Shown one piece after another: positions 60,401-63,400 of a stretch of 64,000 bases of DNA. Within the stretch, counting starts at the first letter, position 1. Each line of letters starts with the position of its first letter. Position numbers: made by a program. Where the stretch lies: NCBI RefSeq assembly GCF_057098645.1, contig NZ_CM169472.1; one strand, written 5' to 3'.

Positions 60401-63400
60401 AATCCCATTCATCAGGGTCTTTATCGCCGCCATAATCAAACAACAGATTAGTCACCATTGTGGTAACGCATTCCAGCAACACAACCTCATTCGGGTTAAT
60501 GTCTGCATGAATTAATTCATCAAGATGTTGCCAGCGCTCCACTGTGCGCCAGTGCTCCGGGCGGCCTTGCCGATGATGTTCTATCCGTGCAGCCATCTCA
60601 TCATCAAGGATTTGCGAGGTAGCGATATACAGAACCTGTGAAGAGTCCCCAATAAGCGCCTCTGCGTGGCGACTCTTCCCGCTCCGTGCGCCCCCCGTCA
60701 CCAAAATCATCATACCGACTCCTGATTCAAATGTATGATGGTATTCATTGAACAGAACAATGGATCCCCCACCGTTGCTGACCGCAAAACATTTACGCGA
60801 TTAATACTGCGCGTAATATAATTAAAAATCCAGCATTCTCAATCCATTACGAAATAAGATGGCATTACGGAATAGCCAGACTTTCTCGTGTTAACGTCCG
60901 ACAAAATGTGTCATTGACAGCGGTTTCTGTGGATTGACACATTTCATTCAGATAATGAATTAATGCTACTGCCGGACCAACCAGCAAACGGGCATTGTGT
61001 TCTGAAATCCAGGCTATTGATTCAACGTCAGCGACAGATCTGCGCTGTAAAAGAACTTGTAAAACAACGCAATAGAATTATCCGGAATGGTGGCGACTAT
61101 GCACTAGAACACCACAATTTCGCTCTCTCGGTAAGGCACTGTCACAGCATTCAACAGAATGTGACTTGCCAGATTTATTAGCGCCACCAGATGTTTAACC
61201 GGGTAACCACGACCCAGTCGGGGATATATTCCATCTTCTCGCTGACATCATCAAGAATAAAAAGGTTTATCACACTCAGAGCAACGTTCTTCAGCAGGCG
61301 GGATAATTCTTCAACATTTAAAAGATGTGTTATTAAAGGCATACAAACTGGACGTATTGTATTTTCTTTTGGTGGTTGACCTAAGGTAGCAGTTTATCCT
61401 GATGCGCTGAGATTTCTGTAATATCTACGTCAACATTCTCCTCGAATAGAAAATGCAGCCCCGGCAAGTGATTCACATTTTTTAACAAAACGTTGTTAGC
61501 GTGCCATTTTCAGAAGCTCTCCAAGAAAGCGAATTCTTTTCTCAAATTCTGCATTCTCAGACACAGCTTTCTACTCCATGGCAATGGCCCAAATACGAAG
61601 TTGCTCAGGATCATTAGTGGTGCTGAGAAGTTAAATAACCATGCGGAGTACCACTCGTCATCACGTATTTATATATCATGAAGCTATTGTTGTGTTTTGT
61701 ACATCAGTAGATGTATTCTGATATACTCCTTTTGCTAGACATAACCTTTCACCTGCTTGCAAAGCTTCTGTGTTCTGACATTGCCAAATTGTTGCAATTC
61801 TGTATCCAGCCTTCTTTCAGTCATAGCTTCGGGCCGCGATAAGACTCACTGATCTGACCCTGATTCCTCTTGCAGACTTTATAGACCAATTAAAATGCAG
61901 TTTCTGCAGGTCAACGTCTGACCATCATTGTCATCACTCTGGCCATTAGAGTAACCTTCTGCATTCATCCTTTTGTAAAAAGTTTATAGACTGGCCCCCT
62001 GAATCTCCAGACAACCAATATCACTTAAATAAGTGATAGTCCTGATACAAGTTTTTAGAGTAGTCATTAGTGAACAGATAATTGTTAACTTAGAACCAGT
62101 AAAATGCAAACGACGCACCACGCTGGGAAAATCGCTGCTATTCAGCAGAGTTTTGTACCGAGAATTGTGGCCAGCCACTTATTGCTCTCGCGTAAGCAGG
62201 TATCCCCATCGTTTACCAGTCCAGCACATCTTGTGGTCAGGCAGAAGAAGAGCAAACTGTTACTGGACTCACTGCATGCATGGTGGAGAAAAATGCCACG
62301 CTATCCAAAAATCCAGACTGGGAGAATGGTTCAGCTGTGTACTGAATCAGTGGGGCGCACTCTGTTATTACAGTGTTGACGGTCAGGCGGAGGCAGACAT
62401 AATGCCGCGGAAAAAGCCCTTTGTGCCATCTGTCTCGGAAATAAAAACTTTATGTTCTTCGGCGGCGAGCGCAGTGCACTGTTGTATGGGCTTATCGGCA
62501 CTTGCCTTCTGAACGACATTGATCCGGAAGCGTATCTGCGCCATATTCTGAGCGTACTGCCGGAATAACCTTCCAACCGTATTGATGAACTCCTGCCATG
62601 GAACGTAGTTCTCACCAATAAATAAGCATCAATATGATTCTCCATTAACGCTTACCTTTTCTCAGGCTATTTTTGCTTTTTTTTGCTTTTCCCCGCCACT
62701 TTATGGTGATTATCACATCAATATACATCGATAGATATTAACGTAACTGCAGTGAGGTGAAGCATGAAATTTGAACGCCATCATGAAATATTGAAACGAC
62801 TCAGTAAATTCGGTTCTGTAAAAGTATCCGATCTGTCCAATAGCCTCAATGTAACGAAAGAAACTATTCGTTCAGATCTTAATGAACTTGCCAGGCTTGG
62901 CTATCTGACTCGATGTCATGGCGGTGCTTTTATCGTCCTAGACTCGCTTGATACTATTGCGAAAAATGAAATCGCTTATGCGCTTGAAAATTATGATACA
63001 GCCCAGGGAATAAAAAAAGGCCACTCAACTATGAAAAGTCAAGTATGCGTTATTGGTTCGTTTAATGTTGATATCATCAGTTATTTGCCGAGGCTTCCCA
63101 CTATCGGAGAATCGCTTCTGGCAAGTAATTTTATATTTTCACCGGGGGGAAAAGGCTGTAACCAGGCGCTGGCAGCAAGCTTTGCCGATACTGATGTTTA
63201 TTTCATAACAAAAGTAGGTACAGATCACTTTAGTGATTATGCGATCAACTTTATGAATTCGTCTAAGATTTATAAAAGTATAATTTATCAAACGAAAGAA
63301 ACGCAAACCGAAACTGCCACGATCCTTGTTAATGAAGGTACTGGCGATAATGTTATTGCGATCTATCCCGGTGCCAACATGACAATGTCGTCCGATGAAA

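Follow-up and report, generated by a model that had tools for sequence, protein, structure and literature searches.

The DNA that follows cobU in the window (the whole 64,000-nucleotide stretch analyzed, from contig NZ_CM169472.1 of RefSeq assembly GCF_057098645.1) is, with high confidence, an inert graveyard of six insertion sequence (IS) remnants at positions 61010 to 62655, which was inherited vertically at the variable cobU-yeeX locus and arose by nested insertions and then deletions. All of 61010 to 62655 consists of IS debris, in the order IS4 family, IS66 family (no. 1), IS110 family, IS2-like, IS911-like, and IS66 family (no. 2). The matches have E values of 1e-24 to 1e-47, far beyond chance, and the alignments identify each piece, with the IS4 assignment being weak (E = 4.9e-4). 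The elements inserted into one another and were trimmed later by deletions; the genomes compared do not reveal in which order the older ones arrived. A DDE or DEDD catalytic core is absent from every remnant. Because every piece has lost its catalytic domain and at least one of its ends, nothing in 61010 to 62655 can transpose or encode a product.

Genomic context and distribution

The scar adjoins the cobT-cobS-cobU block of E. coli near the right end of the window. cobU (60168 to 60713, minus strand), recognized from its ORF and from the RefSeq annotation of identical DNA in ATCC 8739, is the last gene of this conserved block. On the other side lies a DeoR-HTH/PfkB kinase gene (62764 to 63978, plus strand; Pfam PfkB, 3e-64, and HTH_DeoR, 3e-15, in agreement with the annotation), the first gene of a variable island that is bounded by the scar. 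The GC content of the island is about 0.40, compared to about 0.53 for cobUST, and the E. coli genome comparison found it in part of the species only. The initial annotation had taken the scar to mark the edge of horizontally acquired DNA, and these properties of the PfkB island agree with that reading.

Over the 2,047 bases that follow cobU, the window matches many complete E. coli chromosomes, C9 and O145:H28 RM12761 among them, with 100% identity and ATCC 8739 (Crooks) with 99.9%. RefSeq annotation of this DNA gives three pseudogenes and then the PfkB-family kinase gene. The PGAP pseudogenes correspond to a "cobalamin biosynthesis protein" missing its N terminus (window positions 60865 to 61008), an "IS4 family transposase" (61017 to 61205), and a frameshifted "IS66 family transposase" missing its N terminus (62230 to 62568). 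In a survey of 5,426 complete genomes, the fusion of the IS2-like and IS66-like parts (junction J2) was present in 1,493, the junction at the left of the IS2-like part (J1) in 679, and the form with the IS911-like DNA undeleted in 450. No form is shorter than that of the window, which carries both junctions, as do the 679 genomes. The cobU-yeeX interval is known to vary: K-12 and B have CP4-44 there, whereas W and Crooks have an empty site (PMC3032704).

Other parts of the window also contain variable DNA. A tRNA-Asn gene (23243 to 23318) is directly followed by a P4-type integrase gene (23378 to 24742), after which come genes for type VI secretion (TssG, TssF, and VgrG-like; 29205 to 34508). 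The region from 23243 to 34508 has the appearance of an island inserted at an asn tRNA gene. An inverse-autotransporter (YeeJ-like) gene at 37252 to 46640 appears to be split into ORFs of 960 and 1,723 amino acids, and the 296-amino-acid ORF between the halves (40509 to 41399) is possibly an IS insertion. Three more tRNA-Asn genes lie within 4.3 kb (52977 to 57284) just upstream of ldtA-cobTSU; these form the asnW/asnU/asnV cluster, which holds known island integration sites.

Remnants between cobU and the IS2-like end

The 1.3 kb that precedes the IS2-like end had been described as containing only short broken frames in degenerate DNA. The first part of this description is accurate, as the longest ORF there has no more than 72 amino acids. 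However, the DNA is not anonymous and contains four identifiable remnants. Scans of the six-frame translations of 60714 to 62000 against Pfam and NCBIfam yielded nothing beyond a weak IS4 match, and the remaining remnants were recognized only via a distant DNA search against plasmids.

The remnant closest to cobU (60865 to 61008, minus strand) comprises the C-terminal 48 of 145 codons of an ORF resembling the N-terminal part of CbiG, consistent with its PGAP label. Strain F17EC0245 has the full 145-amino-acid ORF between pocR and cobU, directly before cobU, and retains pduF-pocR. This ORF matches positions 1 to 126 of the NCBIfam model for cobalt-precorrin-5A hydrolase (CbiG) with an E value of 2.2e-20. 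Homology of the window to F17EC0245, in which pduF-pocR adjoin cobU, runs from cobU and ends at 61009. The 48-codon remnant alone had no match to Pfam or NCBIfam models, and scans of longer alleles against both did not identify it either; a homologue search retrieved short E. coli and Shigella fragments only, and a PDB sequence search was of no help. The remnant was thus identified only through the full-length ORF of F17EC0245. A CbiP remnant, expected from the Salmonella gene order, was also considered and was unsupported. Some E. coli strains carry pduF-pocR and the 145-amino-acid CbiG-N-terminal-like ORF immediately upstream of cobUST (positions 491 to 5849 of the CP088875.1 segment), an arrangement that in F17EC0245 resembles the Salmonella pdu/cob neighborhood minus the cbi genes. 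CP088875.1, a 393-kb "plasmid" of F17EC0245, and several PLSDB "plasmids" of 1 to 4.9 Mb look like chromosomal DNA.

The next remnant (61017 to 61205, minus strand) appears to come from the interior of an IS4-family transposase gene and contains an in-frame stop. Its match to NF033592 covers positions 132 to 197 (66 of 332) and is weak (E = 4.9e-4; 19.3 bits against a cutoff of 115), and the PGAP pseudogene points to the same family. In the K-12 annotation, the part from 61017 to 61103 corresponds to the pseudogene yeeH. It is followed by IS66-family element no. 1 (61199 to 61757, minus strand), of which residues 1 to 151 of TnpC, with stops (61199 to 61642), remain together with the 3' part of tnpB as far as 61757. 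The DNA is about 71% identical to plasmid copies of IS66-family elements, and the TnpC part has 47% identity by tblastn (E = 6e-24). Positions 61110 to 61642, which overlap this element, correspond to the K-12 pseudogene yoeG. A spurious 54-amino-acid "hypothetical protein" ORF (61178 to 61342) is also assigned to this element.

The fourth remnant (61757 to 61987, minus strand) is the 3' noncoding end of an IS110-family element, 73 to 74% identical to two plasmid-borne IS110-family elements (E = 2e-34). In contrast to those elements, the window has only this 3' noncoding end of about 230 bp, which breaks off about 15 bp before reaching the stop codon of the transposase. The DEDD transposase gene is absent, with its last 50 codons being kept only in longer alleles such as that of 23CRST011, where the IS110 homology extends into them (E = 2e-7). 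The remnant was truncated by the deletion that made J1.

The IS2-like left end

A stretch at 61987 to 62199 (plus strand) represents the left end of an IS2-like element, with a complete left inverted repeat (IRL) and the decayed 5' part of insC. The initial annotation had noticed an IS2-type terminal repeat at 61987, and the alignment to K-12 IS2 confirmed it: the first 55 bp (TAGACTGGCCCCCTGAATCTCC...GTGATAGTC) match the IRL of IS2F at 55 of 55 positions, and 61987 to 62160 align with 83.4% identity over 175 bp (E = 4e-47). The frameshifted, diverged InsC-like frame that had been proposed to follow is likewise present. Compared to IS2, the insC part has a 33-bp deletion (11 amino acids) and a frame change, in that the first 15 or so codons lie in the frame of the ORF at 62033 and the next part lies in the frame of the ORF at 62104. 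At the protein level the match is weak (tblastn, InsC residues 18 to 52, E = 0.008), and only InsC residues 1 to 52 are recognizable. In strain CUVET18-1475, PGAP labels the same stretch as an "IS3 family transposase" pseudogene.

The piece shares with IS2 of the IS3 family (IS2F in K-12) the identical 55-bp left end, about 83% identity in the insC 5' part, and the same orientation relative to the IRL. However, only about 213 of 1,331 bp are left, insC is deleted and frameshifted, and neither orfB nor a right inverted repeat (IRR) is present; beyond the IRL, the piece is a diverged relative of IS2 rather than IS2 itself. No InsD (orfB) match was found in it by tblastn, and it lacks the orfA-orfB organization with a programmed frameshift as well as the combination of an IRR and a 5-bp target site duplication that mark the IS2 group. 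The element stops at about 62199 and is followed by IS911-like and IS66-like sequence.

The stump occurs as two alleles, one in the window and JJ1887 and the other in K-12, SFE8, and 23CRST011; the former has an IS2-identical IRL, with A at base 6 in JJ1887. The alleles were compared using 61987 to 62199 of the window, positions 9001 to 9191 of the K-12 segment, and positions 7000 to 7197 of a second compared segment. The K-12/SFE8/23CRST011 allele differs by 5 substitutions and a 12-bp IRL deletion within the first 55 bp and by about 7 substitutions in the remaining 140 bp or so up to 62199 (about 5%), and it is about 89% identical to the window overall. This divergence is far above the 0.3 to 0.5% of the flanks. 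SFE8 additionally has a large island to the left of the stump.

The IS66-family fragment next to the PfkB gene

The rightmost remnant, IS66-family element no. 2 (62225 to 62655, plus strand), resembles ISEc23 and IS682. It comprises approximately codons 401 to 537 of TnpC, frameshifted, and the right terminal repeat, and PGAP annotates 62230 to 62568 of it as a pseudogene. The suggestion that this is the C-terminal part of an IS66-family transposase is upheld by a tblastn match of residues 401 to 537 of the ISEc23 TnpC to 62230 to 62622 (E = 5e-40), which includes the natural C terminus LPWNVVLTNK, and by the Pfam domain DDE_Tnp_IS66_C (PF13817; E = 4.2e-8, 33.7 bits against a gathering cutoff of 30). 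Alignment to IS2 and IS66-family references thus confirmed both pieces. An in-frame stop is present at 62566 to 62568.

The right terminal repeat is intact and ends in ...CGCTTAC. A terminus had been placed near 62656; the right end, ...ACGCTTAC, lies at 62655 and aligns base for base with the right end of ISEc23. The sequence ...TTAACGCTTAC, which ends at the same position, is collinear with the ISEc23 right terminus, the left end of ISEc23 being GTAAGCGTAAAC (GTAAGCG...), and the terminal repeat is of the GTAAGCG... type of the IS66 family. The likeness to ISEc23 and IS682 covers the last 137 TnpC codons, the natural stop codon, and the repeat at the right end, ...GACGCTTAC, at about 83% end to end. 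In contrast to these elements, tnpA, tnpB, and TnpC residues 1 to 400 are missing (the last by tblastn), and frameshifts and the in-frame stop are present. The fragment is not autonomous and belongs to neither named element, as it shares only about 83% identity with ISEc23 and IS682, the closest elements that are intact in E. coli. The junction between the IS66 end and the PfkB gene is kept in every variant examined.

We also considered whether the two IS66-family fragments are halves of one element. This was rejected, since they have opposite orientations, do not abut, and have different closest relatives, and TnpC residues 1 to 151 and 401 to 537 are not adjacent. A further IS66-family 3' fragment is found in inverted orientation at the right end of CP4-44 in K-12 (17046 to 17207 of the compared segment); it is 89% identical to window positions 62497 to 62658, with its terminal 39 bp matching ISEc23 exactly. 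Strain CEA224S (segment 3449 to 3804) has an intact ISEc23 and, about 180 bp later, an IS2 left end, an unrelated second instance of IS66-family and IS2 ends side by side.

The IS911-like scrap and junction J2

The initial annotation had two fragments fused to each other, with the switch at about 62300. The IS2-like and IS66-like pieces are both real, but they are not fused directly: a 26-bp internal scrap of an IS911-like (IS3-family) element at 62199 to 62224 (minus strand) lies between them, and the switch is located at 62199 to 62225, 75 to 100 bp further left. The scrap (AGGTATCCCCATCGTTTACCAGTCCAG) is the inner tip of the IS911-like fragment of longer alleles. It has no significance alone and is convincing only by its synteny with those alleles, being continuous with a 737-bp IS911-like fragment in SFE8 and 23CRST011. 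In these strains, as in about 450 genomes in all, a further 737 bases separate the IS2-like part from the IS66-like part, and the extended alleles contain, on the other strand, approximately the left 790 bp of an IS911-like element. The long allele is 85% identical to IS911; the window differs in keeping only 26 bp.

The proposal of a scar left by successive insertions and deletions was borne out by comparison with the cobU-downstream region of other strains. The longer alleles keep DNA that the window has lost, and the IS110-like and IS911-like homologies are unbroken across the window breakpoints in 23CRST011, SFE8, and JJ1887. At J2 (62224/62225), the IS911 homology begins inside the apparent end of the IS2-like piece and runs unbroken across the junction in SFE8 and 23CRST011. 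Judged by these alignments, J2 is shown to be a deletion, in which 737 bp of the IS911-like element were lost between two CCAG microhomologies. A CCAG tetranucleotide is present at both ends of the 737-bp segment missing from the window, which fits a microhomology deletion; this mechanism, like that of J1, is inferred. J2 predates J1, because both the truncated stump and J2 itself are already found in JJ1887.

Junction J1 and the loss of 9.2 kb

Strain JJ1887 (ST131) matches window positions 60001 to 61987 and 61987 to 64000 with 99.3 to 99.6% identity and has 9.2 kb in between. This DNA contains the rest of the IS110 remnant, an intact gene for a 715-amino-acid TonB-dependent receptor, which is the full-length version of K-12 yoeA, and ibrBA-like and yaiP/yaiO-like genes. 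Because JJ1887 has the 9.2 kb at this position and the IS110 homology continues past the breakpoint in 23CRST011, the strain comparison shows J1 (61986/61987) to be a deletion as well, in which about 9.2 kb were lost, including the rest of the IS110 remnant, the TonB receptor gene, and the ibrBA-like and yaiPO-like genes.

The right end of J1 is exactly the outermost base of the IS2-like IRL, with an overlap of 1 to 2 bp. That the breakpoint falls precisely on the tip of the IRL points to an event linked to an IS. The orphan 213-bp IS2-like end had already lost its transposase and right end before J1, as the same stump is present in JJ1887 with an undeleted flank. We tentatively favor homologous recombination between the stump and a full IS2 that would have been present transiently at 61986/61987 in direct orientation, a route given slightly less than an even chance. 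Such recombination would have 55 bp of perfect IS2 identity to act on. At base 6 of the IRL, the window and IS2 have T and the undeleted JJ1887 has A; the T is also found in the SFE8 allele and may therefore be ancestral rather than imported from IS2. Strain KE51 has a real IS2 in the same orientation 176 bp from the J1 site. No IS2 was found exactly at 61986/61987 among the 5,426 genomes, the nearest being 176 to 210 bp away. A chance illegitimate deletion would be a less probable origin of J1. IS2 transposase acting in trans from resident IS2 copies, cutting or joining at the solo IRL, is rather unlikely; if true, this would represent a one-ended transposase-driven deletion outside the accepted two-ended IS2 pathway.

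Alternative explanations

Three other readings of the region were weighed against a graveyard of IS remnants. The first is that part of the scar was co-opted, with the IS66 end providing an outward promoter for the DeoR-PfkB gene or the IS110 3' end encoding a noncoding RNA. One promoter-like site (62609 to 62638) does lie within the IS66 end, close to its terminus and on the upstream side of the PfkB gene, and the junction of the two is conserved in every variant examined. However, promoter-like sites in the region occur at the frequency of shuffled sequence (5 found versus 4.9 expected), terminator-like sites are likewise not in excess, and an Rfam scan of 60100 to 62900 at an E value of up to 1 gave one chance lncRNA match only. 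Common descent accounts for the conserved junction, and the IS110 remnant is without its transposase. As far as sequence can tell, co-option thus appears improbable.

The second reading is that the window arrangement is ancestral and that the longer forms (9.2 kb in JJ1887 and 737 bp in SFE8 and 23CRST011) are later insertions. The window form is the shortest and is common, both junctions being found in 679 genomes. In contrast, the IS110 homology in 23CRST011 continues unbroken across J1 from the 3' noncoding end into the transposase C terminus, and the IS911 homology is unbroken across J2. The part that a gene fragment lacks on each side cannot be supplied by an insertion, and neither ends nor target duplications of its own were seen in the extra DNA. 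We consider this order of events very unlikely.

The third reading is that of a single intact and novel hybrid IS, or a mobile composite unit, made up of the IS2-like and IS66-like parts. It draws on their collinearity, their shared orientation, and the presence of the fusion in 1,493 genomes, but it is excluded, as all copies found are at one chromosomal locus adjoining the same PfkB gene, the left end is of the IS3 type (TAGAC...) and the right end of the IS66 type (...CGCTTAC) and these are not inverted repeats of each other, TnpC residues 1 to 400 and IS2 orfB are absent and the frames broken, the longer alleles have an IS911-like piece between both parts, and neither piece has a DDE core, a second inverted repeat, or tnpA/tnpB.

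Comparison with K-12 and the left end of CP4-44

The graveyard of IS remnants is shared in part with K-12, which has IS5, IS2, and CP4-44 at this locus, with yeeH, yoeG, yoeH, and yoeA annotated and yoeH lying just beyond the window breakpoint. Window positions 60968 to 61988 correspond to K-12 positions 2066020 to 2068238 at more than 99.5% identity when IS5H is left out, and the shared segment from 61104 to 61988 is 99.7% identical. Compared to the window, K-12 has an IS5 (IS5H) inserted at 61104 to 61107 and retains the 5' part of yoeA, split by IS2F. The tetranucleotide CTAG at 61104 to 61107 is the exact IS5H insertion site of K-12, seen as a 4-bp alignment overlap, and is empty in the window. 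The K-12 IS2-like stump is without its first 13 bp and is fused to yeeP and CP4-44, in contrast to the window, where it is joined to IS66-family element no. 2 and the PfkB island.

In K-12, the annotated "cryptic prophage CP4-44" begins about 255 bp from cobU (2066020), taking in yeeH, yoeG, yoeH, and yoeA. The yeeH-yoeG part (to window position 61988) is present at more than 99.5% identity in the window, which has no CP4-44. A full-length yoeA homologue is found in JJ1887, which has the PfkB island rather than CP4-44 at this site. From these comparisons, the true left edge of CP4-44 is more likely the junction of the IS2-like stump and yeeP.

The fine structure of the scar, with its six remnants and two deletion junctions, is not described as such in the literature as far as we found. 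The scar itself is an ordinary example of a known phenomenon, partly annotated already as yeeH and yoeG in K-12 and as PGAP pseudogenes. Its pieces come from known IS families, and none of them qualifies as a functional member by any of the criteria applied. As an IS scar of the usual kind at a locus well known to vary, it carries little biological weight. The alternative junctions (J1, J2, the IS911-like form, and the K-12 form) provide simple lineage markers for the region. In addition, the annotated left end of CP4-44 in K-12 is older IS debris and not prophage, because DNA more than 99.5% identical to it is present in strains without CP4-44.
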